NCBI GenBank assembly: GCA_964526915.1
Contig: CAZGMS010000072.1
Location: forward strand, 7,341 to 71,340
From: an uncultured Nitrospirales bacterium
GTDB taxonomy: Bacteria > UBA10199 > JADGCS01
DNA: 64,000 bases
Reading direction: 5' to 3'
Shown here: in pieces, positions 1,442-64,000 of the stretch
Layout of the letters: each line of letters starts with the position of its first letter
How positions within the stretch are numbered: the first letter of the stretch is position 1
Program-made: the position numbers and the translations under genes
Notes under the pieces: generated by a model
The model's input: the letters and a program-made list of their open reading frames with translations, nothing else
Database searches by the model: none
Told to the model about the DNA's origin: nothing

Positions 1442-3328
1442 TCACACATTTTTTTCTTTGATTACCTCATCACACAGCGATGGGGCTAGTTGGTAGGTGG
1501 TCACAACCCGTTTGAGCAATTTATACAATTCGCTCATCTTACCGTCTTGTTTCGAAAGGGCCGCACATTCATTAATGTTTTTCAACAGTGAAGCAGAATC
1601 ATCGATTGATCCAATAGCCATGTTTATTTTTGGATGCTTGGTTGGACAAACTTTTTCTGTTTCATCGTACAGTTCTTCATAAAGTTTTTCACCTGGCCGC
1701 AAACCACAAAACTCAATCTTGATATCTGTGTTTGGCTCAAAACCGCAAAGTCTGATCATATTCACTGCCAAGTCCATGATTTTGACCTGCTTGCCCATAT
1801 CCAAAACAAAAATTTCGCCGCCGTTTCCCAACACACTGGCAAACAAAACGAGTTGCACGGCCTCGGGGATCATCATAAAATAGCGTTTGATGTCTGGGTG
1901 TGTCACCGTAATTGGCCCGCCCTGTTGAATCTGTTTAGTGAAAAGAGGGATCACCGAACCCTGACTGCCAATCACATTGCCAAAGCGCACGGCAATAAAT
2001 TTTGTTTTTGAATTTTCCTGAAAAACCTTGCACAGCAATTCAGCCATCCTCTTGGTCACACCCAAAATATTTGTGGGATTGACAGCCTTATCTGTTGAAA
2101 TAAAAACAAACCGTTCAACACCGTGCTCCTTTGATAACTCCGCCAGCTTTTTTGTGCCTTCAACATTGACAGAAATTGCCTGATAAATATTATCTTCTAA
2201 AATTGGCACATGTTTATAAGCCGCTGCGTGCAAAACGATTTGTGGCTGTGCCTGTTTAAAAAAACGACCCAGCGCCCAGTGATCAGTAATGTCACAAAGC
2301 ATGGGCACAAATTCCACATTGGGAAATTTTACCTGACATTCGCGGAACAAAAAATACAAAGGTGATTCTGCCTGATCTAGCAAATACACAATCGCTGGGC
2401 CCATTTGCGCCACCTGCTTTACCAATTCTTCACCAATGGAGCCTGCGGCCCCAGTCACCAGCACGCGTTTATTAACGTAAGTTTTGCGAACTGATGAGAG
2501 ATCTTCGATGATGGGTTCTCTGGCCAACAAATCTTCCAGTTTAAGATTCCTGATTTCAAACGTAGCAGAATTCTCAGAAAGTTCTGAAAGGCTGGGCATG
2601 ATTTTGACTTGGGCTTTGGCTTCAAAACATTTTTCAGCCAAACTTCTGAGCAGTGCTGGCCCAGCAGAGGGAATGGCAATCACAACCTCGTTCACCTCGT
2701 TGGCTTGGACAATCTCCACTATCTGATGGGTTGCCCCCAAAACCTTGACACCATGAATCTCATGATTTTTCTTCCAAGGATCGTCATCCAAAAAGCCCAC
2801 TACCTCATACTGTGTGGTGTCGTGTTTGACGCGCCGACAGGCAATGTCACCACCGTCACCGGCCCCCACAATCAGTACCCTTTTAAGTGTTGAGGGCACG
2901 GGGCCCACGTTCCTGTACAACCTAACCAATAAACGCAAACCACCAAAACTCAAAACAAACAACATGTGGTCCACCAGCAAAATGCGCAAGGCATCATGCC
3001 CCAAGCCCGTCACGAGCATGCTGACAATATTCAATGCGAAACTGACCGCCGCCACTTTGACGATCAGTATCAGATCGGAAATGCTCGAATACTTCCAAAT
3101 GCCGCGATTGACACCAAAAAGGTAAGCCAGCCCCAACTGGGACGCCACAATGATGAACCCAAAAAGGCCAGAAAACACTACCTTGCCGGGATACACCAGA
3201 TAATCTGAAAGCAGAAGATTGAAGACGATCAAGCCACAAAAGGCAGACAAGACCAATAAAAACCGGCCCCTATTGTTTCTCACAATTCTGTCGGTCAGGG
3301 TTTTAAAAAATAAGATTCGTTTTCTCAT
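1442..3328 (-). CDS. Membrane-bound UDP-HexNAc 4,6-dehydratase (CapD/WbpM/PglF-family polysaccharide biosynthesis protein)
   Basis: 628-aa ORF. Hydrophobic N-terminal helices are followed by two Rossmann motifs (VLIVGAGDGG, VLVTGAAGSIGEEL) and ISTDKAVNPTNILGVTKR. This architecture is typical of CapD/WbpM. Confidence 0.9.
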   Translation of the reverse strand: MRKRILFFKTLTDRIVRNNRGRFLLVLSAFCGLIVFNLLLSDYLVYPGKVVFSGLFGFIIVASQLGLAYLFGVNRGIWKYSSISDLILIVKVAAVSFALNIVSMLVTGLGHDALRILLVDHMLFVLSFGGLRLLVRLYRNVGPVPSTLKRVLIVGAGDGGDIACRRVKHDTTQYEVVGFLDDDPWKKNHEIHGVKVLGATHQIVEIVQANEVNEVVIAIPSAGPALLRSLAEKCFEAKAQVKIMPSLSELSENSATFEIRNLKLEDLLAREPIIEDLSSVRKTYVNKRVLVTGAAGSIGEELVKQVAQMGPAIVYLLDQAESPLYFLFRECQVKFPNVEFVPMLCDITDHWALGRFFKQAQPQIVLHAAAYKHVPILEDNIYQAISVNVEGTKKLAELSKEHGVERFVFISTDKAVNPTNILGVTKRMAELLCKVFQENSKTKFIAVRFGNVIGSQGSVIPLFTKQIQQGGPITVTHPDIKRYFMMIPEAVQLVLFASVLGNGGEIFVLDMGKQVKIMDLAVNMIRLCGFEPNTDIKIEFCGLRPGEKLYEELYDETEKVCPTKHPKINMAIGSIDDSASLLKNINECAALSKQDGKMSELYKLLKRVVTTYQLAPSLCDEVIKEKNV

Positions 3329-3418
3329 GAGTGCCTCACAGAGCGGGCGGTATAATCATAAGCGAAAAGGGATGCAATCAAAAGATAGATTGGAGCATCA
3401 AATAGTCAGATGCGGTGG

Positions 3419-4546
3419 TTAAGCTTGCTCCAAAGCTTTCATGCGGGTAATGTATTCACGAAAAAAGGCCACAAAAACAGAGATAAACAAGGCCCCCATG
3501 AAAGAAATGATGCAAATCTGCGCTCTTTTGGGTGCAAATTTTTCCTCGGGAGGGATCGCGGGATCAATGACTGTAAACGAAATATCTTCTTTGGCCTCCT
3601 GTATTTTGGCCATTTCGTATTGTCCGGCAAGCGTCATCTGCACCTGCAAGAGCAGTTGGTGTTGTGCCATCAAGTTTTCCAAAAGAACAGATAATGGCAC
3701 CTTACCATTTGACTTTGATTCAGCAATTTTGCGTTCGTTTTCTGCCTTTTCTTTGAGAAGTTTTTCAACATCAACAGCATCAACACCACTCACAGTCTGT
3801 ACTGTCGTAGACACAGCTGGCAATAACGGCAAGACGCCAGTCCCAACGTTTCTTGAAAAATCATTGATCTCCATCCCGTTTTTCAAGCGGTCTTCCTTGT
3901 TTTGCGCCATTTGTTGTTCCAAGAATATCCGGTTTCGCTTGGCAGAAGTGAGTGTCTGTTTTCCCAAGAAAACCTGAAGTTCCCGCAAATAGGCGTTTGC
4001 AATTCTGGCCGAAAGCTGTGGATCCGTGGTTGCAACACTTACAGAAATCGAGCCCTCTTTTATATCCTCTATTACCGAAACCATTCCACTCATTAATAGT
4101 GTCACGGCTTTCTGTAATGTTGGCATTTCTTCTGGCGTTGTGGTCATCCATTGATTGGTCGTGTTATCCCAATAATCCATGAACAACACCTTCATTAGCT
4201 GTTCTTTTTCAATCACGGCCTCCGCGACTGAACGACTTTTTAATATCATTACTAATTTAGTGGTACTACTGGTTCCAGCACTCACCCCTGCAAGAGATGC
4301 CAGGCCACCAAATTGTGCTAAAAGAGAAGAAAAGCCTCCCATGGACTCATTAGCACTTACAGGAAAAATAACCGCTGTCGATCGATATTGTTTGTCCATC
4401 AGGCCACTACCAATAACCGCCACAACAGACACAATGAGAAGGGCAAGAAAGATCATGAGCTTGTTCTTGTTGACTACCCTCAAAATATCCAGGATATTTG
4501 TTTCTCCACTATGCCCCTTGGCAGTTGTACCAACATTTTCTGTCAT
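3419..4546 (-). CDS. wzz: Polysaccharide chain-length determinant (Wzz/PCP-1-like, no kinase domain)
   Basis: 375 aa. One TM helix near each end (LMIFLALLIVSVVAVIGSGL; ICIISFMGALFISVFVAFF) flanks a long polar, helix-rich middle. Located in an O-unit locus. Confidence 0.7.
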   Translation of the reverse strand: MTENVGTTAKGHSGETNILDILRVVNKNKLMIFLALLIVSVVAVIGSGLMDKQYRSTAVIFPVSANESMGGFSSLLAQFGGLASLAGVSAGTSSTTKLVMILKSRSVAEAVIEKEQLMKVLFMDYWDNTTNQWMTTTPEEMPTLQKAVTLLMSGMVSVIEDIKEGSISVSVATTDPQLSARIANAYLRELQVFLGKQTLTSAKRNRIFLEQQMAQNKEDRLKNGMEINDFSRNVGTGVLPLLPAVSTTVQTVSGVDAVDVEKLLKEKAENERKIAESKSNGKVPLSVLLENLMAQHQLLLQVQMTLAGQYEMAKIQEAKEDISFTVIDPAIPPEEKFAPKRAQICIISFMGALFISVFVAFFREYITRMKALEQA

Positions 4547-4591: not shown

Positions 4592-5794
4592 CTAGCGTGT
4601 AGCCTTTGATACAACATCAGTCAATGTAGAACAAGTCCTATGTAACTCATTTTGCGTTAAGGTTGGATGAACAACAAACATCACACTGGTTTCGCCAAGC
4701 TGTTTTGCCAGTGCAAGACGTTTTTCTGGCCGCAGCCCTGTAACGTCAAAAGCTTTTTCCAGATAAATCTCTGAACACGAACCCGTGTAACAGGGAACCC
4801 CCTGCTTGTTGATTTCGGCTACGATACGATCTCGTGACCACCCCGAAGACAATGCTTCGGGCCTCACATACACATAACACTTATACCAAGCATGTTCTAT
4901 ATGAGAAGGAACTTCAGGAACTCTCAATGCAGGACATTGTCTTGCCGCGGCCAAGATTGCCTGTGCATTTGCTCTGCGCGCTAAATGCCACTGATCTAGT
5001 TTTTTTAATTGAATTCTTCCAATCGCCGCCTGCATTTCAATCATGCGCCAGTTGGTACCAATGGAGTGATGCACCCACTTAAAACAATTGCCTTCTTCAC
5101 CATTATTCATCGCTTGATACGATTTCCCATGATCCTTATAAGACCAGGCATAATTCCAAACCTCTCCATCGTTTGTCGTGAGCATCCCTCCCTCACCACC
5201 TGTGGTCATGATTTTATCCTGACAAAACGACCAAGCACCCACATGGCCGATACTTCCCACTTTTTTCCCATTGTACTCTGCCCCATGGGCCTGAGCACAA
5301 TCCTCGATCACAAAAAGCCCGTGGTCTTTCGCAAGTGTTATGATTGCATCCATCTCACAAGGCCAACCAGCAAGATGCACAGGGATAATCGCCCTGGTTT
5401 TTTTTGTTAATACCTTCGCAATTGAATCGGCTGTGATGTTGCCACTATCCGGATCAACATCAGCAAATACAGGCTTCGCACCGACTGTGATCACACAACC
5501 TACGGAGGCAATAAAACTACGAGGCGTCACCACCACCTCATCACCGGGCCCCACTCCCAGTGCCTTAAGTGCAAGTTCCAGGGCCACCGTCCCATTCGCC
5601 AGAGCCACAGCATGCTTTACACCAGTATAGCCAGCAAACTCTTCCTCGAACCTCCTGCACTCTGCTCCAGTCCAATAATTTATTTTGCCAGATCGCAAGA
5701 CCTGCGAAACAACATCAATTTCGCCTTGTTCAAAACATGGCCAACAAGAACTTAAACTGTTATCTGATAACATTATGTTTTGTTTGGTTTTCAT
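4592..5794 (-). CDS. DegT/DnrJ/EryC1/StrS-family sugar aminotransferase (PglE/WbpE-like)
   Basis: Motifs GTVALELALKALGVGPGDEVVV, VIEDCAQAHGAEYNGKKVGSIG and SFCQDKIMTTGGEGG. The longest ORF starts at 5833, but the Met at 5794 gives an ATGA overlap with the upstream stop (tcat at 5791-5794). Confidence 0.85.
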   Translation of the reverse strand: MKTKQNIMLSDNSLSSCWPCFEQGEIDVVSQVLRSGKINYWTGAECRRFEEEFAGYTGVKHAVALANGTVALELALKALGVGPGDEVVVTPRSFIASVGCVITVGAKPVFADVDPDSGNITADSIAKVLTKKTRAIIPVHLAGWPCEMDAIITLAKDHGLFVIEDCAQAHGAEYNGKKVGSIGHVGAWSFCQDKIMTTGGEGGMLTTNDGEVWNYAWSYKDHGKSYQAMNNGEEGNCFKWVHHSIGTNWRMIEMQAAIGRIQLKKLDQWHLARRANAQAILAAARQCPALRVPEVPSHIEHAWYKCYVYVRPEALSSGWSRDRIVAEINKQGVPCYTGSCSEIYLEKAFDVTGLRPEKRLALAKQLGETSVMFVVHPTLTQNELHRTCSTLTDVVSKATR

Positions 5795-6429
5795 TTGCTT
5801 GTTGCTTTTGTTATTCTGGCTGGCACGCCACATGCTGTAACAGAATCTGGCAGATCAGAAATCACAACGCCCCCCGCTCCAACTATTGAATTCTCACCAA
5901 TGACCAATCCCGGAATCGCCACACTGCCAATTCCCATAAAAACTCTATTACCAACTTTCACATTCCCTGCCAATTTTGCTCCGGGACCGATATGAACATA
6001 ATCACCAATGATACAATCATGGTCAATCACAGCGCCAGTATTAACGATACAATGTTTGCCTACAACAGCACCTGGTTGAATAACTGCTCCCGCAAAGATC
6101 ACAGTGCCACAACCAATTTTAACAGAAGGATGCACATAGGCACTTGGGTGAACAACTGTCACCCAAGTGTTATTCATTAATTCTTTAGCAATTTTTTCTC
6201 GAAATCGATTGTCGCCAAACGCCATGAGCAAAGAACATTCCTTGTTTTTGGCCATTTCACTTAAAGGGCCTACAACATTAACACCTAAAACAGTTTTGTT
6301 TCTCTTTGATTCATCGTCATCATATAGGCATTCAACTTTAAACCCACTATCAAGCAAAGTGGCCACGACAACTTTCGCATGCCCACCTGCACCCAAAATA
6401 TAGACCGGATCATTTTGCTTCATCAACAC
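5791..6429 (-). CDS. Hexapeptide-repeat amino-sugar N-acetyltransferase (PglD/NeuD family)
   Basis: 212 aa. N-terminal VYILGAGGHAKVV domain followed by left-handed beta-helix repeats (IGDYVHIGPGAKLAGNVKVGNRVFMGIGSV). Confidence 0.85.
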   Translation of the reverse strand: MLMKQNDPVYILGAGGHAKVVVATLLDSGFKVECLYDDDESKRNKTVLGVNVVGPLSEMAKNKECSLLMAFGDNRFREKIAKELMNNTWVTVVHPSAYVHPSVKIGCGTVIFAGAVIQPGAVVGKHCIVNTGAVIDHDCIIGDYVHIGPGAKLAGNVKVGNRVFMGIGSVAIPGLVIGENSIVGAGGVVISDLPDSVTACGVPARITKATSK

Positions 6430-7042
6430 CCCTCTTGATTGAGCCTGTAAATTTTGGCATGGTCACATGCCCCTCAGCATTGATGCCTTTTCTTTGAAAC
6501 AAACGCACTATGGTGATAAATAATATTTTGATATCCAGCAAAATACTTTGATGATCAACATACCAAACATCCAGCTTGAATCTCTCTTCCCACGAAATGG
6601 CATTACGCCCATTAATCTGCGCCCAGCCAGTGATCCCTGGTTTAACCACATGCCGCCTTGTCTGTTCAGGACTGTAAAGCGGCACATACTCCGGAAGAAG
6701 AGGCCGTGGCCCCACAAAACTCATGTCGCCTTTCAATACATTCCACAACTCTGGCAGTTCGTCTAAACTCATTTTTCGCAAAAAAATACCAACTGCAGTC
6801 AATCTCTCTTCATCTGACAATAAATTGCCCTTCATATCACATTGAGTTTTCATTGTTCTAAACTTATACAACACAAATTTTCTTGTGTTCATGCCAACAC
6901 GTTGTTGTTTGAATAACATGTTACCTGGTAAAGTGACCAGCAAGACAAAGGAAATAAATACCAATAATGGAGCACAAAAAACCAAACCAAAAAAGGAAAG
7001 AAAGAAATCTGACGCTCTCTTAAATTTATAACTCTGTACCAT
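6410..7042 (-). CDS. Small monotopic phosphoglycosyl transferase (PglC-type 'bacterial sugar transferase'); initiating enzyme no. 1
   Basis: 210 aa. N-terminal re-entrant helix, then KFRTM, SLDELPELWNVLKGDMSFVGPRP and PGITGWAQ motifs. Confidence 0.9.
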   Translation of the reverse strand: MVQSYKFKRASDFFLSFFGLVFCAPLLVFISFVLLVTLPGNMLFKQQRVGMNTRKFVLYKFRTMKTQCDMKGNLLSDEERLTAVGIFLRKMSLDELPELWNVLKGDMSFVGPRPLLPEYVPLYSPEQTRRHVVKPGITGWAQINGRNAISWEERFKLDVWYVDHQSILLDIKILFITIVRLFQRKGINAEGHVTMPKFTGSIKRGVDEAK

Positions 7043-7152: not shown

Positions 7153-8406
7153 CTACACTGATATTGACTCAAGCCACTTAACCATTCTTGGGTAAACAAC
7201 ATCTGCTGATAATTCCTTGTTATAAAATGACATGGCTTGCTCAGACATTTTTTTTATCACGTCCGGTTGACTATAAAATTCAAAAAGAACATCGTACAAT
7301 TTATGTTCGTCCTTGTAATCATAGATAACACCACATCTGTTCTGCTGAAGAACATTTCCTATCACGCCATCAATTCCAGCGACTACTGGAAGCCCTGCAG
7401 AAAAATACTCCCCTATTTTATTTGGCAACGACATAAGAAAATCTATTGTCGGTTGATAAGGGGCCAAACCTATGTAAGAATAATTCAATAAATATTGAAT
7501 TTGGGCCCCATCAAGCCTGCCAGGAAACACAATGTTTGAGCAATCTGTAGTTTTTTTTCTTAGCCCCTCCAAAAACTCTCCGTTTCCACACATGACAAAA
7601 TAATAATCAGTTACATTTTTTAATTTTCTGGCAACATTAATGATGGTATCAAAATCAAATTGCCGACTCATTGAACCAATAAAACAAATCACTTTTTTAT
7701 GAAAGCCCGGTCCAACGCCATACCGTGCCCAAAAGTCTCTTGTCTCTTTTGATTCTTGATATTGATATTTTTTACAAGCCAAATAAAAAGGTTGATCGTT
7801 CTTACAGGTTTTTCTTCCTGATAATTTCAAGCCCCAATCTATAACCTGTTGCGTAATCCCTGTCACCGCAGTAGCTGATCTTATGGCTTGTTTTAATTGC
7901 CTATAATAAGGCCACATTATTTTTTTACAAATTGGCCTCAAACCTTTTGAAAAAGATCTTAAAAAAATATCTGGCCATAAATCTCTCAGGTCAAGAACAA
8001 CAGGCACATTGTTCAAGCGCCCATATCTTATAGCTTCTCTAGCCAACTCTATTGTTGGCATGGAACATAAAATTAGATCTGGGGGAGCAAAGAATGAAGC
8101 CATTTTTTTAAATTTTTTGGCAATCAAACAATGATCAAGGAGCCGTCTCACTGAAACACTTTTTGAATATCCCATAGAATTCATCAACACAAGCTGGCAG
8201 CAATCCTTCAAGTTAATCACTTGATCTTTATCAAATCGATGCTTTCTCTGAAAGTGATCAAAATCAGAGGCCCACCAAACCACTTCGTGACCTTGTTCAA
8301 TAAGATAATTTGCCAGCATGCCCATGCGATAAAGCCTAGGATTTTCACCATCAATGGGCAAAACCTCACCAATTTTTATCAACCATACTCTCATACGACT
8401 TTTCAA
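7153..8406 (-). CDS. Glycosyltransferase, GT-B fold (GT4-like)
   Basis: 417 aa. N-terminus MRVWLIKIGE...GHEVVWW; C-terminal donor-binding region NKIGEYFSAGLPVVAG. AT-rich gene within the GT/Wzy/Wzx block. Confidence 0.7.
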   Translation of the reverse strand: MKSRMRVWLIKIGEVLPIDGENPRLYRMGMLANYLIEQGHEVVWWASDFDHFQRKHRFDKDQVINLKDCCQLVLMNSMGYSKSVSVRRLLDHCLIAKKFKKMASFFAPPDLILCSMPTIELAREAIRYGRLNNVPVVLDLRDLWPDIFLRSFSKGLRPICKKIMWPYYRQLKQAIRSATAVTGITQQVIDWGLKLSGRKTCKNDQPFYLACKKYQYQESKETRDFWARYGVGPGFHKKVICFIGSMSRQFDFDTIINVARKLKNVTDYYFVMCGNGEFLEGLRKKTTDCSNIVFPGRLDGAQIQYLLNYSYIGLAPYQPTIDFLMSLPNKIGEYFSAGLPVVAGIDGVIGNVLQQNRCGVIYDYKDEHKLYDVLFEFYSQPDVIKKMSEQAMSFYNKELSADVVYPRMVKWLESISV

Positions 8407-9230
8407 ACAATTTTATAATCATTATCGTTAGCCCGAATCTCTTTTATAGCTTCTTCATATGTACAAAAACAAATGTTTTGATTCTTAATATATTCTATGA
8501 GCCAAACATACCATTTTTTCCACATCATAAAATCAGGGCCAAAATATCTATCATGAAAAATAACGCTCAAAAATGGTTGGTTTTCATTTTCTGCTTTCTC
8601 GATAAGTTGAATGGTTGTTTTCTGTATTGCATTAAAATCTTTTCTCTGCCAACGAGTCCTTTTAGAATTCATCAAATCTGAATCCATGACTTGAACTGGA
8701 AAAGAATAAAAATCACCAATGGCTGTTATTTCACTTCCTCTGACACTCGCCGTGTAGAGATAACCTAATTCAGCAAGCCAGACTAGTGTGTTTGAAGAAT
8801 GCCTCAAGTAATGCATCCGAATCCCAAAATCCTGAAGACCTGATAATTCTGAAAACAATCTGTGCTCATTCTTCATTTGTGTATAATCATCAAAAGCAAT
8901 GCCATGCACACCAACTCGAAAACCCTTATTAAGAACCCTTCTTATCCAATAGACTGCACGTTTATGAGAATAAGACAGTCCCAATCCTTTGGCCACTCCT
9001 ATATAAAATGTGGATGGAATTTTGTGTTTTCGGTCAAATTCCATCAAATCGTCAATGTTATTCCACTGATTACGCATTGAATAATAAAATCTAAGAAAAC
9101 ACTCCTTAATAGAAATTATTCCTAAAACTGTTTCAATGATTGTTCTGATAATAAATTTAGGAATGATCATATCCTTCCAATGCTCCAAAAAACTGATATG
9201 ATCGACGTCATGTGACACAATAACTTTCAT
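8403..9230 (-). CDS. Putative polysaccharide deacetylase-fold protein (divergent CE4-like)
   Basis: 275 aa. N-terminal VSHDVDH, then GVHG and RMHYLRHS...PVQVMDSDL. The same pattern recurs in ORF 42431-43795. Family assignment is by motif resemblance only. Confidence 0.4.
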   Translation of the reverse strand: MKVIVSHDVDHISFLEHWKDMIIPKFIIRTIIETVLGIISIKECFLRFYYSMRNQWNNIDDLMEFDRKHKIPSTFYIGVAKGLGLSYSHKRAVYWIRRVLNKGFRVGVHGIAFDDYTQMKNEHRLFSELSGLQDFGIRMHYLRHSSNTLVWLAELGYLYTASVRGSEITAIGDFYSFPVQVMDSDLMNSKRTRWQRKDFNAIQKTTIQLIEKAENENQPFLSVIFHDRYFGPDFMMWKKWYVWLIEYIKNQNICFCTYEEAIKEIRANDNDYKIV

Positions 9231-17215: not shown

Positions 17216-17226
17216 GTATTATTATT

Positions 17227-47155: not shown

Positions 47156-47159
47156 GTCA

Positions 47160-54461: not shown

Positions 54462-55393
54462 ATTGATTTCTTTGAGTTGAAGTTATGTAGAACACTTTTT
54501 ATTTTCCAAAAAAATGGTACTTTTGGAAGGTTGCCATACCCAACATAATCACATACCCGACATAAATCGCTACAATTTCGATTTTGTCGAGACAGTTCTC
54601 TTCTCATTTTTTGAAACTTTGTCCCAAACCAGACTTCAAACAATGAAGCCTTGTTAAGATCTCCCATTTCATTCATATTATAAAAGTCATTGATACAAGA
54701 ACAAACCATTCCGCTAGGTTTAATATACATTATCTCATACACTTGATCACAGGGTGCTTGGCAGACCTCTTTATAAAATTGCTTTACATTCCCAGCGCGA
54801 CTCGTCCACGTTTCCTGATAGGTTCTATTGATATGTGTAATTTTCTTTACCAAACTATCATCCAATTGGGATAACATATTCAAGTTTCGCTCACAGGCCT
54901 TGTCATCATATGAATTTAAATATATATGATTCAAACCATCATGAAACAACTGAGAAACTCTGTGTGTTGTTAATAAATCACCATTTGTTGTAATAAATAT
55001 CCAAGCCCTGGGAAGTTTTTTTCGGGCATATTTTAAAAATTCATTAAATCGTTTATCGGTTAATGGCTCATTAATCTCATATAAGCTCAAAATCCCCGAA
55101 TATGAAATTGAAGCCAATTCATTAATAATACGTTTAAATAACTTCTCATTGATATTCTGCTTGACTGGCGACCTTTCCAGCCCATAATGACAAAAAGAAC
55201 ACTTTCGTGTGCACATATAATTGGTCTGAATTTTAATGTGCTTAAAAAGATCTTTGTCGGCTAATCCTTGTTTGCGCCTAAAAGACTGATAGGGATTCCG
55301 AATATTCCTAATATACCAATCTCTCAAAAAGACTTTCGTCCTGATACGTAAAGGAATATTATTTTTCCAATCATCACTCATAATAAGAAACAT
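54458..55393 (-). CDS. Radical SAM enzyme with Cys-rich SPASM/twitch-like C-terminus
   Basis: 311 aa. CX3CX2C in NYMCTRKCSFCHYG. C-terminal Cys cluster CQAPCDQ...VCSCIND...NCSDLCRVCDY. Confidence 0.8.
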   Translation of the reverse strand: MFLIMSDDWKNNIPLRIRTKVFLRDWYIRNIRNPYQSFRRKQGLADKDLFKHIKIQTNYMCTRKCSFCHYGLERSPVKQNINEKLFKRIINELASISYSGILSLYEINEPLTDKRFNEFLKYARKKLPRAWIFITTNGDLLTTHRVSQLFHDGLNHIYLNSYDDKACERNLNMLSQLDDSLVKKITHINRTYQETWTSRAGNVKQFYKEVCQAPCDQVYEIMYIKPSGMVCSCINDFYNMNEMGDLNKASLFEVWFGTKFQKMRRELSRQNRNCSDLCRVCDYVGYGNLPKVPFFWKIKSVLHNFNSKKSI

Positions 55394-55394
55394 T

Positions 55395-56645: not shown

Positions 56646-56667
56646 GGTAGCTTCCTCCTATGATGAT

Positions 56668-57489
56668 TTATCTCACCTTTCTCATCCGGGCCATGGCACA
56701 TCCATTTGACTGAGACAAGTTACTGGCAGATACATTTGATAATTTTTCAAATCCCGAAACTTCTTCCCAAAATTCGTGCTCGGTAAATTGGAAATATCTT
56801 TCTTCAACCAATTCAAAATCCTTATGCCTGATGATGTTCATCCAACTCTCTTGCTCATACTCCCACTGGACACAATAGTAGCCAAGACTATCCTGTATGA
56901 CAACAGGTCCGCCCTTACCCATAGGAACCGTGATAAATAATTCTCCCTGCTTTTTAAGGATTTGACTGGTCTTATCCATAACAAGTCTATCTGTATGGGG
57001 CGCGCGATCTGTACACACGTCTTGAATATTTTTCTTTCTGACAAATACGCTTTTGTCATCACCCTGGGACGAGACATCATAACCAATGTGTTCTATCACA
57101 GATATACAGGTAACCACGTCAAAATTATTTTTTGGCAATTGATAATATCGATAATCACCACAATATTGATTCAGAGCCATCACTGAGGGCCACCACTCTT
57201 GCGGATATCTGGATTTAACGGCATCAAGTTTCACAATATCTATGAAGTGCAAATCAAGCCCCAATATTTCTTTTGTAGCCAACAAAGTCCCCATATAGTC
57301 CAAACTGGATAACGCTGTGCCAATATCCAGCAACCGACAGCCCTGAAAATCTACCAGATGTGAGGTTAACCAAGGGACTTCTATGCATCTGGCTGAATGT
57401 GACTGTCTGATGTCTGTTTTCCCCCAGCACTGCTCTCGTCGTATGATGGCCACGCAATAATCTAATATTCGCTTTGTCGTTGTGTCCAC
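56668..57489 (-). CDS. Methyltransferase-fold protein (class I SAM-MTase-like)
   Basis: 273 aa. RLLDIGTALSSLDY (motif I-like) and DVVTCISVIEHIG (post-II-like). Confidence 0.5.
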   Translation of the reverse strand: MDTTTKRILDYCVAIIRREQCWGKTDIRQSHSARCIEVPWLTSHLVDFQGCRLLDIGTALSSLDYMGTLLATKEILGLDLHFIDIVKLDAVKSRYPQEWWPSVMALNQYCGDYRYYQLPKNNFDVVTCISVIEHIGYDVSSQGDDKSVFVRKKNIQDVCTDRAPHTDRLVMDKTSQILKKQGELFITVPMGKGGPVVIQDSLGYYCVQWEYEQESWMNIIRHKDFELVEERYFQFTEHEFWEEVSGFEKLSNVSASNLSQSNGCAMARMRKVR

Positions 57490-57518
57490 AGTTTACCTCT
57501 CCACTCTGATAGGGTTAA

Positions 57519-59147
57519 TCATTGAGAATAGCTTTCCATATCCACATGAAGTGTTTCCAAATAATAACGCCATTGAAACGAACCCTTTTCCAAGACCTTC
57601 TTCGCCCTTTGTACCAATTGTTGACAATCTTCTGTCAGGTTTCGAGTTTTCATGATTTGAGCAAGAGCCAATAGAGCAAATACATGGTCTGGCACCATAT
57701 CCAATACATATCGAAAATCGCGCTCTGCCTGTGCCAAAGATTCTTTTGTGTTCTGTTTCAGATTTCGATTGTTGATAAAATTATTTTTGAGGTTGGCCAT
57801 GTAACTTAAGTCACCAAGTTGCTTACTCGAATAATCAATGTGATCAAACTCCTGGGCAAAATAAAACTCTCCCGCCCCCTCGCTAAAACCATCTATCAGC
57901 CGCTGTTCAATACAGTCATCAAAGAGAGCTGCCCCGGGAAGAGGCTTAAAACAATAAAATCCCTTCCAGTCCGTATCGAGTGTTTCCGCAAAAGCCAGGG
58001 TGTTCTTAACACTCTTGAGATCCTCGAAGGGAAAACCGGTAATGAAAAAGGCATTTATAAATGCTGACCCGTTTTTCCTGATCAGTTTGACCACATTTAG
58101 TGTTTCTTCAACCGTGAGAGGCTTACGAATCTTCTTCAGTATTTCATTGGATCCAGACTCCGCCGCCAAATTAAAAAACGCAATCTTGCTGGCATACATT
58201 TTTTTTATTATCCGCTCATCATTGAGTGTGCGAATGGACAAGCCACCACTGGACAGCCAACTGACATCCAGTGTAGCAAGGGCATCCAGCAACTGTTCAA
58301 ACCATTTTTTGTCGACACTGATATTCTCATCATTAAAGATGATAATATTTACGTCGTAATTGTCTTTGAGGTATTGAATTTCATATACGATATTTTCTAC
58401 GTGACGTTTGCGCCATCTTCTACTCCAGAAACTGGGAGATGTACAAAAGGTGCATGCATTGGGACAGCCACGAGAAGCTGTAATCGATGCAGGTCTCCAC
58501 TCATGCTTATCCTTCAAACGGTACAACAAATTGCGACCTTCCCGAAAATAATATTTGAAATGAGTGTCTTCCCAGGGCAGTCGTTTGACATCACAATATC
58601 CGTCCCAGAATTTCTTACGTGGATTACGAATCACCTGATTCCCTTCGCGATGAACAATGCCTTCTATGTCACTCATCTGCCCGTTTGAATTCATAGCATC
58701 AATGAGATCAGACAAACCCAATTCACCTTCCGACAAGATGATATAGTCAACCAACTCATCTTCCATACATTTGGCTGTGAGATGATGAGGATAATGCCCG
58801 CCAAAAACTAGGACGATTTTCGGGTTAATCTTTTTTATCAACGAGGCCATTTTGTGAAAAACAGGTATGCCCTGATAATACAATGTGGCCATGGCTATCA
58901 TATCGGGCTGATATTCTAAAATGTACCTCTTCAGGATATCCTCAAGGGAGTCTCCTGTTAAGAATTTCATTTCAATATTGAGATCGACAAACAGGACACC
59001 AACATCCTGACGTTTCTTGATATAATCATACACGTACAGCAAGCCCAGTGGAGGCTCAAAATAGGCATATCCTGATTGTCTTCCCAATTTTAATACGGAA
59101 GGATCCGGCGGATTCAGAAACAAGATTTTATTGATAATTTTATTCAT
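57519..59147 (-). CDS. B12-binding (class B) radical SAM enzyme with a helical-repeat C-terminal tail
   Basis: 542 aa. N-terminal cobalamin-binding-type domain (ILFLNPP...LGLLYVYDYIKK) and cluster motif TASRGCPNACTFCTSP. The C-terminal ~90 aa look TPR-like (LAQAERDFRYVLDMVPDHVFALLALAQIM). Confidence 0.8.
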   Translation of the reverse strand: MNKIINKILFLNPPDPSVLKLGRQSGYAYFEPPLGLLYVYDYIKKRQDVGVLFVDLNIEMKFLTGDSLEDILKRYILEYQPDMIAMATLYYQGIPVFHKMASLIKKINPKIVLVFGGHYPHHLTAKCMEDELVDYIILSEGELGLSDLIDAMNSNGQMSDIEGIVHREGNQVIRNPRKKFWDGYCDVKRLPWEDTHFKYYFREGRNLLYRLKDKHEWRPASITASRGCPNACTFCTSPSFWSRRWRKRHVENIVYEIQYLKDNYDVNIIIFNDENISVDKKWFEQLLDALATLDVSWLSSGGLSIRTLNDERIIKKMYASKIAFFNLAAESGSNEILKKIRKPLTVEETLNVVKLIRKNGSAFINAFFITGFPFEDLKSVKNTLAFAETLDTDWKGFYCFKPLPGAALFDDCIEQRLIDGFSEGAGEFYFAQEFDHIDYSSKQLGDLSYMANLKNNFINNRNLKQNTKESLAQAERDFRYVLDMVPDHVFALLALAQIMKTRNLTEDCQQLVQRAKKVLEKGSFQWRYYLETLHVDMESYSQ

Positions 59148-59187
59148 CTTTTAACCACAATATTTATCAGTTATCCTGACAAGGAAA

Positions 59188-60594
59188 TCAGACAACCTGT
59201 GTTTTGAGATAATTTTTTAGCAAGACAATTTTCGACAATCTTTTTTCATACTCAAAACTGCGCACCAATAAATGCAAGTTCTTCAAGAAGAGAAATATTT
59301 TGTTGGGTGGCAATTTTAACAGCCAGAAAATCATTCTCTCAAAATAGGGATATTTAATGAGATAAAAGAACAATTTATCCAGATTAATAAATATTTTTTT
59401 CTCTTTAGACATGAGAAGTGAATCATTAAAATTCAATAAATGAATTTCTTCCAGTGTAGGTATCTTTTTGATATAACCCTTTTCAAAAGCGTAATGAGTC
59501 ACTCTGAGGCCAGGATAAAAAACCAGTACATTGGATGAATAGGAATCAGCCTTAATTTCACGGCACAGTCTTATGGTGTCCATGGCTTCTTCAAAGGTTT
59601 CACCTGGCCAGCCAAAAATGATATCAATACCAATCCGAATACCCTGCTCTTGAATCAGGCGACAGGCCCTAATAATCTGTTCGTTTGTGGTGAGGCGACC
59701 GGCGACTTCATGTCGCACACGATCATTTCCCGATTGAATACCAAAAGTGATCCGGTCGCATCCTGCTTTTTTTAAAAGCACGGCGGTTTCCGCATCAATA
59801 TTTTCAACCCGCAAATTACATAGAAACCCTGGCAGTCTGGCTTGCGCATAATCACGTAAAAACTCCTTAAACCACCTCTTATCCGCGTTGAGTGTTCCAT
59901 CCTGAAAATGAACCCATTCTATTCCATAAGTATTTTTTACGTATTTTATTTCCTCCAGCGTTTCCTGAATGGAACGCAATCGCCAGTATTTCTTTTTGAA
60001 ATGACGTGATAATTCTTTGTTGTAACAAAATGTACAACCATAGGGACAACCACGAGAGGCAATGAAGATTTTCACGGGACTTTCTTGAAGAACTTTATAT
60101 TTATAATACACGTCCCGATTGGGGAAACAATTTTCACTCACATCCACAAGATCACATTCTTCATTCTTATGTGCCTGGGCATGCGCATCTAAATAACACA
60201 GTCCCTTTATGGAATCTAACCCTTCACCCCTTTGGTGTTTTAAAATAAATTCTGGTAAGGATTTTTCTCCATCACCTCTAAAAACATAATCCACTGCTGG
60301 CCTGCTGATAATTTCTGGATATATCAGGGCAAAGGGCCCGCCCACCAACGTTACAGACTCTGGTAATACGGTTTTGATTTTCTTCAAATATTCAAAGGCA
60401 AAATTCTCTTCGCCAATAAATAAACTGTAGACAACATAATCGGGTTTGTAGGCTACAATTTTGACATAGAAATCTTTTTCTAGGTCATGAATAAAAACTT
60501 CACAGTGAATGTCTTTTTCCTTTAAACTCCCTGCCAAAAAATGAACACTGAGTTTTTCGTAGGCTTCTTTTTGTACGAAAGCGACTTTTACCAT
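59188..60594 (-). CDS. B12-binding (class B) radical SAM enzyme
   Basis: 468 aa. N-terminal B12-type domain (VAFVQKE...DYVVYSLF) and cluster motif IASRGCPYGCTFCYNKE. Confidence 0.8.
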   Translation of the reverse strand: MVKVAFVQKEAYEKLSVHFLAGSLKEKDIHCEVFIHDLEKDFYVKIVAYKPDYVVYSLFIGEENFAFEYLKKIKTVLPESVTLVGGPFALIYPEIISRPAVDYVFRGDGEKSLPEFILKHQRGEGLDSIKGLCYLDAHAQAHKNEECDLVDVSENCFPNRDVYYKYKVLQESPVKIFIASRGCPYGCTFCYNKELSRHFKKKYWRLRSIQETLEEIKYVKNTYGIEWVHFQDGTLNADKRWFKEFLRDYAQARLPGFLCNLRVENIDAETAVLLKKAGCDRITFGIQSGNDRVRHEVAGRLTTNEQIIRACRLIQEQGIRIGIDIIFGWPGETFEEAMDTIRLCREIKADSYSSNVLVFYPGLRVTHYAFEKGYIKKIPTLEEIHLLNFNDSLLMSKEKKIFINLDKLFFYLIKYPYFERMIFWLLKLPPNKIFLFLKNLHLLVRSFEYEKRLSKIVLLKNYLKTQVV

Positions 60595-60605: not shown

Positions 60606-61508
60606 TTATCTTGTTTGATGTGGTACCGGTCTGTAAGCATCCAGTTTACGTGTCCCCCAGAGACTTGATACCACCAAACCACATAACCGTACCCAACCAT
60701 GAAGCACAAAATAAGGCACATATTTTACTTGATATTTCAATCCACAATAGACAGCTCTTTTGATAGGGTATGTATAAATCAAATGTTGTATCACGGCCCA
60801 GCGTCTCTCAGGATGTGCCATGATGAACTTGTAGTCCCCCGCCCCATAAGAAAGCCAACGACTAACCAATTCACCAAAATTATCTATGTATTTACGGTAT
60901 GTTTTACCTGTCCCCACGACAAAATGGCCGCCCTGTCTTTTCAGTCGATAGGCCAGATCAGAATCTTCAGAAGCGGAACCATAACGAACATCATTGTTTT
61001 TCATGGCTTCTATGAGGGCCCGTTTTTGATATAAAGCGGGCCGACCAACCATTTGAATATTTTGTTCTTTCTGCTTCTTATCCAAATCACGAATCACCTG
61101 CATGCTCATCCAAAAAGCCTGTTCCCAGTATTTTGATTTTTTTCCTGTTTTTTCCGATAAATCACAATGCCTGGCCTGTGTCGCCACGGCACCTGATCTT
61201 TCCAAATCCAGCATCAGGTCACGCAAACACCACCGATCCAACTGATCATCAGCATCAACAATGGCAACGTAAGAAGCCTCAGAAGAGGCGGCATAAACTC
61301 CTGTATTTCGTTGTATAACCAAACCTTTCTCTGATTCAATGACCTTAATAGCAGTAAACTCTCTGGCCAATAAGGTGGTGCGATCGACTGAACCACCATC
61401 GACTACAATGATCTCTAATGGGTCATTATCCAAACAAGACTGAATACAAGCAGAAATATTCTTTTCTTCGTTAACAGTGCGAATAATAACCGTAATCGGT
61501 AGAGACAT
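60606..61508 (-). CDS. Glycosyltransferase family 2
   Basis: 300 aa. ITVIIRTVNEEKNI, IIVVDGGSVDRT and AIVDADDQL (DXD). Confidence 0.8.
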   Translation of the reverse strand: MSLPITVIIRTVNEEKNISACIQSCLDNDPLEIIVVDGGSVDRTTLLAREFTAIKVIESEKGLVIQRNTGVYAASSEASYVAIVDADDQLDRWCLRDLMLDLERSGAVATQARHCDLSEKTGKKSKYWEQAFWMSMQVIRDLDKKQKEQNIQMVGRPALYQKRALIEAMKNNDVRYGSASEDSDLAYRLKRQGGHFVVGTGKTYRKYIDNFGELVSRWLSYGAGDYKFIMAHPERRWAVIQHLIYTYPIKRAVYCGLKYQVKYVPYFVLHGWVRLCGLVVSSLWGTRKLDAYRPVPHQTR

Positions 61509-62044
61509 TATGAATGGCTCCCGTGATCAGACAATATCGATAATATCCGCGAATCCCACCACCTGCCATCATAAAAATAATTATCTCTGAGCAACCCATC
61601 CAGTTTAAATCCCAACTGAGTATACAATTCATATTTCTTCACATCGAACTCGTATATTTCTGTCCAGATTTTGTGTAGATTTAACTCACCAAAGGCATAC
61701 TGGAACAGAACTTGGCAAGCATCTTCTGCAAAACCGGCATCATCAATATAGGAATTTTGCCAGCCAATGTAGAGCGATAAATCGGCATGACGATGCACCC
61801 AATTGATGTAACACAAACCACACACTCCAACCAGTTCATTGGTCTCAAGATCACGGACAGCAAACATCAAGGTCCGATCATCTGCCAACACTTTTTCGCG
61901 GTACCATTTATCCTGACTTTCGCGGTCCAACTCACGGTATTCCCTAAAATGCTTTCGAAACTCTTCGTTATTGCGCCACAGACGCATGGTCTCTAGATCC
62001 TCTTTTTCAACGGTGGTCAACGCCACTTTTTTTCCCTTTAACAT
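61508..62044 (-). CDS. GNAT N-acetyltransferase (PseH/RimL-like)
   Basis: 178 aa. DLETMRLWRNNEEFRKHF N-terminus and an acetyl-CoA region typical of PseH-like amino-sugar acetyltransferases. Adjacent to the NeuB-like gene. Confidence 0.7.
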   Translation of the reverse strand: MLKGKKVALTTVEKEDLETMRLWRNNEEFRKHFREYRELDRESQDKWYREKVLADDRTLMFAVRDLETNELVGVCGLCYINWVHRHADLSLYIGWQNSYIDDAGFAEDACQVLFQYAFGELNLHKIWTEIYEFDVKKYELYTQLGFKLDGLLRDNYFYDGRWWDSRILSILSDHGSHS

Positions 62045-63111
62045 AACTCAATATCTCCCACCATGACGGCCTCATCCTCCGCGACATCCCTTTTCAGCAC
62101 TTTGCCAATAAGTGTGTGGACGGCAAACGGTTGAACCCCTCCCTGCGTAAATGGTCGCAGTGGAAACAAATTTTCTTTCGTCAACACATGTCCTTTTTTC
62201 AGATCGCGCACATATCTTAGACCCCGTCTTTGCAAACAAACAGTATCATTCTCATTGGCCTCAACCCTTTTAACACCATCACCCAAGGCCAAATAGACTT
62301 CTTGAGCACGACAAACCATTTCCCTCCACGATTTGGGATTCATGGCAAACCTGTGATCGGGCCCTTCGCGCGAGTTATCATCAGTAAAATGTTTTTCAAA
62401 AACCACAGCTCCCAAAGCGACAGCACCCAACACAGTCGCGTGACCATGAGTGTGATCCGAAAGCCCCAACAAGACATTGGGATATCTTTTTTTGTAATCT
62501 TTCAAAACATTCAAATTGATGCATTTGAAATTTTCAGGACTTGCTGTATAATTTGTATTGCACTGCATGAGCACAATATCCTGAGTGTGCTTAAATAAAC
62601 AATGCATGGCTCTTTCCACATCTTCAATTGTGGAAGCCCCTGTCGCCAGCATCACAGGTTTACCTTTTTTGGCTATATACTCAATCATTTCCAACCAGGT
62701 TATATCTCCAGAACCGATCTTATAGACTGAAACATAGGGATCCACATGATCGACCGTTTCAAAGTCATAGGGACTTGTAAAATATTCTATCCCCACTTCA
62801 TCGCATTTATGTTTTAATTTTGCTGTCCATTCCCGGGGTAGACTCGCGTCTTGATACACCTCATAAACTGGCTTTTTCCATTTTGCTTGATGAGATAATT
62901 GACCACCCAATGACTCAAAACCATTCCGACTCACAATTTTTCTCGCAACAAAATTTTGAAATTTGGCCGCATCAGCCCCAGCTTCTTTGGCCAATTCAAT
63001 CAATTTGAGTGCCCGTTGCAAATCACCATCATGGTTCGCCGCAATATCGGCAATAAAATACAGATTTTCTCCTTCTCCAATTTTTCTTTTGCCTACAGTG
63101 ATCGTTTTCAT
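62038..63111 (-). CDS. Nonulosonic acid synthase (NeuB/PseI/LegI family) with C-terminal SAF domain
   Basis: 357 aa. YFIADIAANHDGDL, GADAAKFQNF and VFEKHFTDD. Which nonulosonate is made cannot be told from sequence by eye. Confidence 0.85.
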   Translation of the reverse strand: MKTITVGKRKIGEGENLYFIADIAANHDGDLQRALKLIELAKEAGADAAKFQNFVARKIVSRNGFESLGGQLSHQAKWKKPVYEVYQDASLPREWTAKLKHKCDEVGIEYFTSPYDFETVDHVDPYVSVYKIGSGDITWLEMIEYIAKKGKPVMLATGASTIEDVERAMHCLFKHTQDIVLMQCNTNYTASPENFKCINLNVLKDYKKRYPNVLLGLSDHTHGHATVLGAVALGAVVFEKHFTDDNSREGPDHRFAMNPKSWREMVCRAQEVYLALGDGVKRVEANENDTVCLQRRGLRYVRDLKKGHVLTKENLFPLRPFTQGGVQPFAVHTLIGKVLKRDVAEDEAVMVGDIELC

Positions 63112-64000
63112 GCAAATACCTTCCTGTAATCCTCAACAAGCGCCTTGATCCCTTCCTCAATAACGGGCACTGAGGTCACAAGAGACGTGAATTTGCTAAC
63201 ATCGAGCGTGGTATCACGAGGCCTTTTTGCCTTAAACAGCATGTGTTCACTGGTGGTCGAACGAATAAGAGATGTTGGCCTCATGCACTCACGGGCCAAC
63301 TTGATCAGAAAATCGTACTTGCTAAAATGATCCTGACTACCCACATGCAAAACTCCACGACAATCAGAAGACAATAACTGTTTAATGGTCCCAGCCAACT
63401 GCCTAATGTATAGGGCATTAAACATCACATCAGTGAACCCTCCAATGGATTCCCCTTTTAATAAATGCGTCAAAGCCCATTCCGCCAAGGATCCTCCGGG
63501 AGGGTTTTTGAAACCATAAATGTTTGTTCTTAAGACCAGTGGTTTTCGTGATTCCTGCAAAACCACTTGCTCCCCTGCCAACTTGGTGCGGGCGTAAACA
63601 TTGAGAGGCTTTGGCTCATCAGTTTCAGAATAATTACCCTGCTCCCCATCAAACACGGAATCTGTGGAGATGTAAACAAAGCTTGTTTGGGGACAATGAT
63701 GCGCCAACGTATATGTTATTCCCTCATGGACATCACCAGCAACCTGCGGGTGTGTTTCGCAATATTCAAGATCAACCAAAGCCAAACAGTGGATGATGAT
63801 GTCCGGTTCTATTCGATCCAAATACATTTTTAGCTGGTCGCTGTCTGTGAGATCAAAATGTTTTTGATGGGTCGCGTCTGCCCACAACGTCTGCAGGCGA
63901 TCACACGCATAGACTTCATAGTTCAAATCTTCCTGTAATATGGGCCCAACCGCGTTGGCCAGCATCCCGGCAGAACCCGTGATCAAAATGCGTTTTACAC
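63108..64000 (-). CDS. RmlD-substrate-binding-type NAD(P)-dependent sugar reductase/epimerase; 5' end at or beyond the window edge
   Basis: At least 292 aa. The frame stays open to the window edge (VKRILITGSAGMLANAVG Rossmann motif). YARTKLAGEQ (YxxxK). Confidence 0.7.
   Translation of the reverse strand, partial: VKRILITGSAGMLANAVGPILQEDLNYEVYACDRLQTLWADATHQKHFDLTDSDQLKMYLDRIEPDIIIHCLALVDLEYCETHPQVAGDVHEGITYTLAHHCPQTSFVYISTDSVFDGEQGNYSETDEPKPLNVYARTKLAGEQVVLQESRKPLVLRTNIYGFKNPPGGSLAEWALTHLLKGESIGGFTDVMFNALYIRQLAGTIKQLLSSDCRGVLHVGSQDHFSKYDFLIKLARECMRPTSLIRSTTSEHMLFKAKRPRDTTLDVSKFTSLVTSVPVIEEGIKALVEDYRKVFA

Follow-up and report, generated by a model that had tools for sequence, protein, structure and literature searches.

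The window analysed here is a stretch of 64,000 nucleotides (nt) of contig CAZGMS010000072.1 (assembly GCA_964526915.1) from an uncultured Nitrospirales bacterium, and almost all of it is taken up by a single surface-glycan locus. Fifty-six open reading frames (ORFs) of at least 100 residues in the ORF list of the window tile its minus strand from 131 to 63986, and the plus-strand ORFs are short and nested within them, in agreement with an earlier note on this DNA, which had placed every supported coding sequence on the minus strand. The region 1442-64000 is a real, very large, one-strand mosaic block of surface-glycan genes (Table 1). Its coding density, computed by script, is 97.7% over 1442-63986, and the guanine-plus-cytosine (GC) content per gene ranges from 0.34 to 0.47 and varies in blocks, giving a mosaic composition. 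The locus appears to comprise at least four portable modules joined head to tail on the one strand, among them an O-antigen-type unit (unit A) that encloses an acid cassette, a nonulosonic-acid unit (unit B) and a dTDP-amino-sugar module (module C). Pfam and NCBIfam profile scans of the window ORFs reproduce the inventory of the earlier note: five family 4 glycosyltransferases (GT4), two of family 2 (GT2), one of the GT-C fold, four DegT-family proteins, six S-adenosylmethionine (SAM)-methyltransferase folds, two ATP-grasp ligases and one Wzz, with no Wza, Wzc or ABC exporter among the 56 ORFs. Two B12-radical-SAM proteins are also present. The note's total of 55 glycan genes stands in so far as the glycan locus is real, but eight of them (13513-21736) encode organic-acid enzymes plus a ligase.

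The genes are tightly packed. Thirteen pairs share four-nt start/stop overlaps (ten ATGA, two GTGA and one TTGA), exactly the number previously counted, as a script confirms, and the four internal methionine codons proposed as alternative starts (5794, 23854, 25104 and 45648) are all ATG and each adds another such overlap if used; that at 5794 is the start used by an independent gene call of another assembly. Only nine gaps between genes reach 68 nt; the four longest measure 239 nt at 51676-51914, 174 nt at 13339-13512, 170 nt at 50426-50595 and 165 nt. These four lie within the array, and no intergenic gap of 1-20000 or 44001-64000 contains a minus-strand terminator-like site. In the same two regions the counts of sigma-70 promoter-like and terminator-like sites equal the shuffle expectation, although the promoter type of the host may differ, and the RfaH ops element GGCGGTAG is absent. 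These signals are compatible with transcription as long polycistronic units, which falls short of showing a single operon.

Could the composite be an assembly chimera of loci from different organisms? The source is a 73,564-nt contig of a metagenome-assembled genome, probably from groundwater, and its GC content varies by block, as a chimera would allow. Identical fragments of window genes are, however, present in several independent assemblies, one record of which bears the label ANAN16-1_SAMN03842446, suggestive of an aquifer metagenome. Of the six module junctions listed, five recur at 100% protein identity in assemblies of other runs (g12/g11, g07/g06, g31/g30, g24/g23 and most of g21): contig L035 covers the genes from ATP-grasp and Wzx to GT4, PglC and PglD, L039 and L040 those from g32 to g27, and L041 those from g27 to g21. 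For the sixth, between the WbpL-type gene and the acid cassette, the support is synteny in a relative, which has the same WbpL-cassette-Wzx-Wzy junctions; the gaps around g44-g46 lie outside this check. Exact four-nt overlaps also cross module borders, for example at g31/g30 and g24/g23. Since independent contigs span five of the junctions and overlaps cross the borders, a chimera is very improbable. A search of the module borders for repeats or insertion sequences gave only short, chance-level repeats, and no Rfam families or tRNAs were found in the window. The locus extends upstream beyond 64000, by at least two more genes, because contig L028 (1-2157) carries Aminotran_3 and CTP_transf_3 genes just upstream of the RmlD-like g56 (63108-63986), which is clipped at the window edge and has its full size of 299 residues in other assemblies.

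Table 1. Genes of the window, with positions (strand) and assignments
Gene	Position	Assignment
g02	1442..3328 (-)	Membrane-anchored UDP-N-acetylhexosamine (HexNAc) 4,6-dehydratase, PglF/WbpM-like; 3' end of locus
g03	3419..4546 (-)	Wzz-type chain-length regulator, PCP-1-like
g04-g06	4592..7042 (-)	PglE-like aminotransferase, PglD-like acetyltransferase, PglC-type small phosphoglycosyl transferase; N,N'-diacetylbacillosamine priming set
g07-g09	7153..10348 (-)	GT4, 275-residue protein of no known family, GT4
g10	10392..11753 (-)	Candidate Wzy polymerase
g11	11869..13338 (-)	Wzx flippase no. 1, Polysacc_synt_3 type (227 bits)
g12	13513..14706 (-)	ATP-grasp ligase of the cassette (ATPgrasp_Ter, CPSase_L_D2)
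g13-g19	14703..21736 (-)	Organic-acid cassette
g13		Ppd-like thiamine pyrophosphate (TPP) decarboxylase
g14		IRG1/PrpD-family protein
g16	18199-19089 (-)	Orphan TIM-barrel protein
g17/g18		Class I iron-sulphur (Fe-S) hydro-lyase, alpha and beta subunits of a two-subunit enzyme
g19		CitE/malyl-CoA-lyase-like C-C lyase
within g13-g19		Aldo-keto reductase (AKR)
g20	21825..22901 (-)	WecA/WbpL-type polytopic phosphoglycosyl transferase
g21-g23	22895..26225 (-)	Short-chain dehydrogenase/reductase (SDR) epimerase/reductase, GT4, WecB (UDP-GlcNAc 2-epimerase)
g24	26222..27625 (-)	GT-C fold membrane glycosyltransferase, PMT_2
g25-g30	27600..33206 (-)	WecE-type transaminase, two methyltransferases, ArnC/PgfS-like GT2 (g28), RmlB (g29), RmlA (g30)
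g31-g43	33203..49046 (-)	Unit B tailoring and transferase genes: heparinase II/III-like, ADH-GFO/IDH/MocA fusion, two GT4, deacetylase-like, FemAB-like, DegT-like, VimE-like DUF7033, PHP, ATP-grasp, two methyltransferases, AsnB
g44	49115..50425 (-)	Wzx flippase no. 2, Polysacc_synt type (59.9 bits)
g45-g46	50596..53186 (-)	Methyltransferase with Trm112-like N-terminus; BFO_1060-family glycosyltransferase, candidate nonulosonic-acid transferase
g47-g52	53205..60594 (-)	DegT, radical-SAM/SPASM, radical SAM, methyltransferase-like, two B12-binding radical-SAM proteins
g53-g56	60606..64000 (-)	GT2, PseH-like GNAT, NeuB-family synthase, RmlD-like reductase; nonulosonic-acid module

The WbpL-headed block and its priming enzymes

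The genes from g20 to g02 have a colinear counterpart in a relative, of which about 29 kb, covering the whole block, were seen in the gene table of an 83-kb JGI contig (3300072015) and in two ENA fragments (L029 and L030). The 83-kb contig holds both the homologue of g10 and that of the orphan g16. In order, the relative carries a WbpL-type transferase (62% identical to g20, at the head of the block in L030), the lyase (83%), the hydro-lyase beta (80%) and alpha (76%) subunits, g16 (86%), AKR, the IRG1-like protein (74%), the TPP decarboxylase (73%), the ATP-grasp ligase (74%, in the position of g12 in L029), Wzx (35% to g11), a DUF7033 protein, the Wzy candidate (56% to g10 in L029, two genes downstream of Wzx), an Epimerase_2 protein, GT4 (44% to g09), a g08-like protein (64%), GT4 (57% to g07), the WbpM-like dehydratase (71%, in the position of g02 in L029) and Wzz (35%), so that identities over the block run from 35 to 86%. 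Upstream of the WbpL-type gene it carries different sugar genes. On this colinearity, 22901-7153 together with 3328-1442 is best described as one inherited block headed by a WbpL-type enzyme.

The priming set g04-g06 does not share this history. The gene table shows no Bac_transf, PglD or PglE gene in the relative's block, and since that block is otherwise colinear, 7042-4592 is most simply read as an insertion, or alternatively as a set that the relative has lost. The earlier note had implied that the PglC-type enzyme belongs with the first Wzx and Wzy. This pairing is not upheld, as in the relative it is the WbpL-type enzyme that heads the block.

Both initiating transferases that the note listed, at 6410-7042 and 21825-22901, look functional from their sequences. 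The PglC-type enzyme g06 (Bac_transf, 211 bits) is 210 residues long with one hydrophobic segment, scores 206 bits against the solved Campylobacter PglC (8g1n) and aligns with it in the SLDELP segment of the dyad region and in the GPRP motif. The WbpL-type enzyme g20 (Glycos_transf_4, 128 bits) has at least seven transmembrane (TM) segments by a strict hydropathy count and keeps the DD, NxxNxxDGxDGL and GDxGS motifs when aligned to MraY (4j72). The two MOP flippases of the note, g11 and g44, likewise stand: both exceed their Pfam cut-offs and are full length. They match different Pfam models and are not recent duplicates, because they share no significant similarity. With the transferase motifs kept and all four proteins matching their homologues in length, neither pair appears degenerate. 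The partners of the PglC-type enzyme are also well matched (g04, DegT, 338 bits; g05, PglD_N and Hexapep), as is the dehydratase g02 (Polysacc_synt_2, 369 bits, with CoA_binding_3 and about five N-terminal TM segments). The regulator g03 has Wzz (40 bits; cut-off 25.5) and GNVR matches, two TM segments and no kinase domain.

The candidate polymerase g10 has about ten TM segments and adjoins Wzx. It matches no Pfam or NCBIfam family, and profiles for Wzy, O-antigen ligase and EpsG give no hit even at E<=1. Only 30 homologues were found among 5.8 billion proteins, the named ones coming solely from 'Gammaproteobacteria bacterium' at 29-35% identity. Topology, position and rarity thus agree with the earlier designation as Wzy-like, which no profile supports.

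Taken together, these genes (22901 or 21736 to 1442) would form an O-antigen-type Wzx/Wzy/Wzz unit, primed either by the inherited WbpL-type g20 or by the acquired PglC set. In both cases g02 would supply UDP-4-keto-6-deoxy-HexNAc. In the PglC route g04 would aminate and g05 acetylate this product; in the WbpL route it would be reduced by the SDR protein g21. C4 would then be the only point of difference between the two primed lipids, and a change of priming enzyme would therefore be easy. The repeat of unit A probably includes an amino sugar to which the ATP-grasp ligase g12 attaches, as an N-acyl group, an unusual acid produced by the cassette.

At the end of the block the relative differs in one further respect. 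There (L029, 15309-16442) Wzz is followed by a 377-residue protein with faint matches to SLBB domains, possibly a Wza-like export protein. The window lacks this protein, and in that position stands a gene for an AAA_14/DUF4143 ATPase (131-1276). Heptamer-like repeats (CCTTxxG...CCCTGCGCCTTAxGCC) lie on both sides of this gene, at 80-130 and 1392-1428, and the ATPase gene could represent a small insertion where the locus ends on its 3' side.

An acid cassette within the block

The cassette between Wzx and the WbpL-type gene is found far beyond the relative. When a genome collection was scanned with the lyase, proteins 51-67% identical to it came from Cloacimonadota, Bacteroidota, Balneola, Verrucomicrobiota, Lentisphaerota, Desulfobacter and Clostridia, and the cassette occurs in at least seven phyla. 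Its content was defined by gene clustering and tblastn over 20 loci. The lyase, the IRG1/PrpD-like protein and g16 form a core that is present in each locus of sufficient length. At least 17 of the 20 have an ATP-grasp gene within the cassette or next to it, and in 15 of 19 a DegT gene adjoins it. RmlA, RmlB and Polysacc_synt_3 Wzx genes are often near, a flippase of this last type standing beside the cassette in nine of the 23 loci that the lyase scan of the genome collection retrieved; GtrB/ArnC-like GT2 genes adjoin it in L004, L010 and L022.

Two steps alternate, each strictly either/or over the 20 loci. One is represented by a Ppd-like decarboxylase with AKR (10 loci), by Ldh_2 (7) or by 2-Hacid_dh (3), and the other by a class I Fe-S hydro-lyase (10) or by Lyase_1, adenylosuccinate-lyase-like, with a cyclase (10). 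All four pairings of the two alternating steps occur. This suggests that a single product skeleton is completed by at least two routes, under both oxic and anoxic lifestyles. The Fe-S version was seen in nearly all loci from typically anaerobic lineages (Cloacimonadota, Clostridia, Desulfobacter and Lentisphaerales).

What does the cassette make? The lyase g19 has a strong Pfam match (C-C_Bond_Lyase, 363 bits) and weak profile matches in the PDB to 5ugr, 5vxc and 3qll (E 0.005-0.07), in the group of malyl-CoA lyase, CLYBL and CitE; its EDA motif (an E-D metal motif) and GxGKxxIHPS align with these enzymes. The nearest solved relatives of g14 are IRG1-like proteins and IDS epimerase, cis-aconitate decarboxylases being more distant. 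The decarboxylase g13 passes the phosphonopyruvate-decarboxylase equivalog TIGR03297 (419.5 bits against a cut-off of 312.5), a family match that does not by itself fix the substrate. We tentatively read 13513-21736, at somewhat less than an even chance, as an undescribed and widely transferred pathway to a hydroxy- or branched-dicarboxylic acyl group that is ligated to an amino sugar. A 2-oxo-dicarboxylic intermediate would be made by itaconate- or citramalate-like chemistry and either reduced, or decarboxylated and then reduced, and the ATP-grasp enzyme would join the remaining carboxylate to a 4-amino-6-deoxy sugar. A literature search for such a cassette found nothing relevant, and it appears to be undescribed.

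A competing idea for 14703-21736 is a phosphonate or sulfonate pathway, leading for instance to decoration with 2-hydroxyethylphosphonate, with one of its TIM-barrel proteins replacing phosphoenolpyruvate (PEP) mutase. In its favour, g13 not only passes the equivalog cut-off but has a split Ppd as its nearest PDB relative, and the alternation between decarboxylase plus reductase and a 2-hydroxyacid dehydrogenase mirrors the known fates of phosphonopyruvate. Yet PEP mutase, the obligatory first step, has no homologue among the window ORFs or in the conserved gene clusters of the 20 cassette loci, and for this reason the phosphonate pathway was rejected as the principal account of the cassette. 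The lyase groups with CitE, malyl-CoA lyase and CLYBL rather than with PEP mutase or isocitrate lyase, its IRG1-like and Fe-S hydro-lyase partners indicate carboxylic-acid chemistry, and the nearly constant presence of an ATP-grasp ligase implies that a carboxylate is retained. We consider a phosphonate product improbable.

The nonulosonic-acid unit and the predicted dTDP-amino-sugar module

Unit B was compared with 15 loci: four come from genomes or contigs, and the other eleven are metagenome loci no shorter than 9 kb. These share a backbone, frequent in Campylobacterota and metagenomes, that runs from nonulosonic-acid genes (RmlD-like, NeuB, GNAT, CTP_transf_3 and Aminotran_3) through GT2, a g46-like protein and Wzx (59-65% identical) to, in some loci, a methyltransferase and then AsnB, a GT, a g36-like protein, a FemAB-like protein, a g34-like protein and GT4. 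Colinear homologues of g31-g43 occur in L031-L034, L045, L048, L051 and L063, at 46-57% identity for AsnB, 39-49% for g32 and 31-46% for g34-g36; the ADH-GFO fusion (L031, L051) and the heparinase-like gene (L031, L047) are found in some. The DegT protein at 40084-41172 matches only part of its profile.

In the window, 64000-33203 consists of this backbone with two extra blocks, g38-g42 and g47-g52. The second, which interrupts the nonulosonic-acid module, has no homologues in the compared loci (L031-L034, L045-L063) and may C-methylate or otherwise tailor a sugar. For the nonulosonic-acid module, the NeuB match is clear in Pfam (248 bits), whereas the specific NeuB and PseI equivalogs remain under their cut-offs; the CTP_transf_3 gene lies upstream, in L028. 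The candidate nonulosonic-acid transferase g46 passes the BFO_1060_trans profile (225 bits; cut-off 200), a family whose function is itself an annotation, and a homologue 23-31% identical stands directly upstream of Wzx in 12 of the 15 loci. Flippases 60-67% identical to g44 occur in Aliarcobacter, Sulfurovum and a large number of metagenomes, an identity across taxa that is unusually high for an O-unit flippase. A Wzx of this type nearly always follows a g46-like protein, and precedes AsnB in 11 of the 15 loci. The methyltransferase at 50596-51675 (-) has an N-terminal Trm112-like zinc ribbon (NF038101, residues 1-53) fused to its SAM-binding domain.

Where does unit B end? In L033 the genes g53-g56 have counterparts at 32-54% identity; this cluster spans about 20 kb and ends in its own 410-residue Bac_transf transferase. 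The 3' end of L047 has a heparinase-like gene, GT4, SDR and a PglC-like transferase, and this GT4-SDR-transferase order is that of g22-g21-g20; the last GT4 of L033 is 47% identical to g22. In the window these genes follow WecB, g23, which passes its equivalog (332 bits; cut-off 210). By position g20 could thus prime unit B, although by orthology it belongs to the block of unit A. Unit B would then run from beyond 64000 to about 33203 and probably end at 21825. It would make a CMP-activated nonulosonic acid and sugars of the 2,3-diamino-uronic-acid type, assembled on undecaprenyl-PP by the GT4, GT2 and BFO_1060-type transferases, and Wzx g44 would flip the product.

Module C (33206-26222) stands between these two parts. 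Its transaminase g25 scores 595 bits (cut-off 375) against the WecE model NF008687, for dTDP-4-amino-4,6-dideoxygalactose transaminase. The GT2 protein g28 has two C-terminal TM segments and reaches 207 bits with the ArnC model (cut-off 529) and 167 with PgfS (cut-off 500). The GT-C protein g24 passes PMT_2 (31.3 bits; cut-off 26.1) and has at least six TM segments, with no NCBIfam match and no PDB relative by sequence. Such an architecture fits the undecaprenyl-phosphate sugar routes, among them ArnC/ArnT and Gtr, and suggests that g25-g30 with g24 form a periplasmic side-branch route. RmlA, RmlB and the WecE-type transaminase would make a dTDP-4-amino-4,6-dideoxyhexose, possibly methylated, which g28 would load onto undecaprenyl-P and g24 would add, in the periplasm, to a glycan, the core or lipid A.

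Readings of the locus and known systems

The best reading of the window, to which we give a probability of about 0.6, is that it encodes two lipid-linked glycans together with a side-branch. The earlier note had proposed two undecaprenyl-PP-linked glycans, or one glycan and an additional glycosylation pathway; the intact transferases, the unrelated flippases and the ArnC-like/GT-C pair favour this proposal, and its assignment of the transferases to the units is the part that does not hold. The comparison across genomes for modules that move as units, which it had recommended, finds the block of unit A colinear in the relative and unit B self-contained elsewhere. Several points weigh on the other side. 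The window contains a single Wzy candidate and a single Wzz. No WaaL ligase, oligosaccharyltransferase or Wza/Wzc matched among the 56 ORFs, though these may lie outside it. The orthology of g20 is with the block of unit A, its assignment to unit B being by positional analogy only. In the 29 kb of the relative one WbpL-type enzyme is the sole initiating transferase, which makes a single-glycan reading of g20-g02 possible. Finally, the ArnC score of g28 is under the curated cut-off, and both the dTDP (not UDP) donor and the acceptor of the GT-C enzyme are predictions.

One alternative is that all genes serve one very complex O-antigen repeat, with the second transferase and the second Wzx redundant, alternative (as in an intermediate of a serotype switch) or specialised for an intermediate. 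The single Wzy-like and Wzz genes fit this well, as does the relative, where one WbpL-type enzyme goes with upstream glycosyltransferases and the cassette-Wzx-Wzy block, and so do the tight packing and the four-nt overlaps at the g31/g30 and g24/g23 borders. Seven cytoplasmic transferases and two priming enzymes would, however, imply a repeat of about nine sugars that starts from two different reducing-end sugars. Nor are the two Wzx proteins related, and in other genomes unit B is complete and independent, with its own transferase. We judge one repeat unlikely. The absence of a Wzy candidate within unit B could instead mean that its product is not an O-antigen but an oligosaccharide that stays unpolymerised and is capped with nonulosonic acid, destined either for general protein O-glycosylation, of the kind known in Tannerella, or for an outer core of lipooligosaccharide type. 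The BFO_1060 match of g46 points this way, as does the conservation of g44 across taxa, which would be expected for a conserved oligosaccharide. Against it, the window has no oligosaccharyltransferase or ligase, the role of the BFO_1060 family is an annotation, and Wzy genes, which are difficult to recognise, might be found in another part of the genome; this too is a doubtful alternative to the two glycans and side-branch preferred here.

We conclude that the locus is a stacked mosaic surface-glycan locus of a known kind, and leaves the knowledge of Wzx/Wzy systems unchanged. It is a clear case, in an uncultured environmental bacterium, of surface-glycan diversity generated by stacking portable modules. 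The PglC/D/E set within a WbpL-headed O-antigen block offers a concrete evolutionary step, by which replacement of a priming enzyme becomes testable, and the unusually conserved, nonulosonic-acid-linked Wzx subfamily should be useful for studies of substrate specificity in flippases. A literature search on loci that carry two wzx genes yielded nothing of relevance.

The closest comparison in size is with the rfb loci of Leptospira, whose genes are near-uniform in orientation. These loci are mosaic and horizontally exchanged; they measure 3.8-121 kb, and the median for pathogens is near 99.5 kb (PMC4758666, PMC13111663). At more than 62 kb, the present Wzx/Wzy-type locus is thus large but has a precedent, and the earlier description of it as unusually large was overstated. 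Leptospira also uses the Wzx/Wzy pathway, with a conserved 3' block and a variable 5' part, and L. interrogans has more than one annotated wzy. The likeness is one of description. In contrast to the window, with its Wzz, PglC-type and WbpL-type enzymes, ArnC-like/GT-C pair and acid cassette, the 20 Leptospira genomes studied have no Wzz orthologue, and in their Wzy-dependent loci the 3' block carries a WcaJ/WbaP-type transferase.

In gene order, the window resembles the wbp/wbj clusters of Pseudomonas aeruginosa, in which a WbpL-type gene lies near the 3' end after GT4 and SDR genes, a WbpM/PglF-type dehydratase comes last, and AsnB-type amidation and WbpB/WbpE-like 2,3-diamino-uronic-acid chemistry are found. 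Here, however, about 20 kb separate wbpL from wbpM, filled by the acid cassette, Wzx, Wzy, glycosyltransferases and PglCDE, and the cluster is three to four times longer. Homologues of Campylobacter PglF, PglE, PglD and PglC are all present, with the Wzz gene g03 separating PglF from the other three. The set differs from the pgl system in having no PglB, PglK or PglA/J/H/I and in being embedded in a Wzx/Wzy/Wzz unit. Module C is like ArnC/ArnT, GtrB/GtrC and PgfS/PgfM in placing a GT2 with two C-terminal TM helices beside a predicted GT-C enzyme and an amino-sugar pathway; its predicted donor, however, comes from a dTDP pathway (RmlA, RmlB, WecE) and not from a UDP one, and no small flippase of ArnE/F or GtrA type was seen in the window. 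The colinear backbone of unit B recurs in clusters from Aliarcobacter, from Sulfurovum and from marine metagenomes (L031-L034, L045-L063). These are of about 28% GC and have a Bac_transf-type transferase where one is visible, whereas the window version is joined to additional modules.

Most novel in the locus is the acid cassette with its orphan TIM-barrel family, which might account for unusual N-acyl groups found on amino sugars of bacteria. Its nearest parallels are the enzymes of itaconate and citramalate metabolism (IRG1/CAD, CLYBL/RipC/CitE and class I fumarase/mesaconase), the families matched by g14, g19 and g17/g18. The likeness is remote, as the E values of the lyase indicate, and in contrast to those enzymes the cassette is located in glycan loci and has an ATP-grasp ligase, the orphan TIM barrel and no CoA-transferase.

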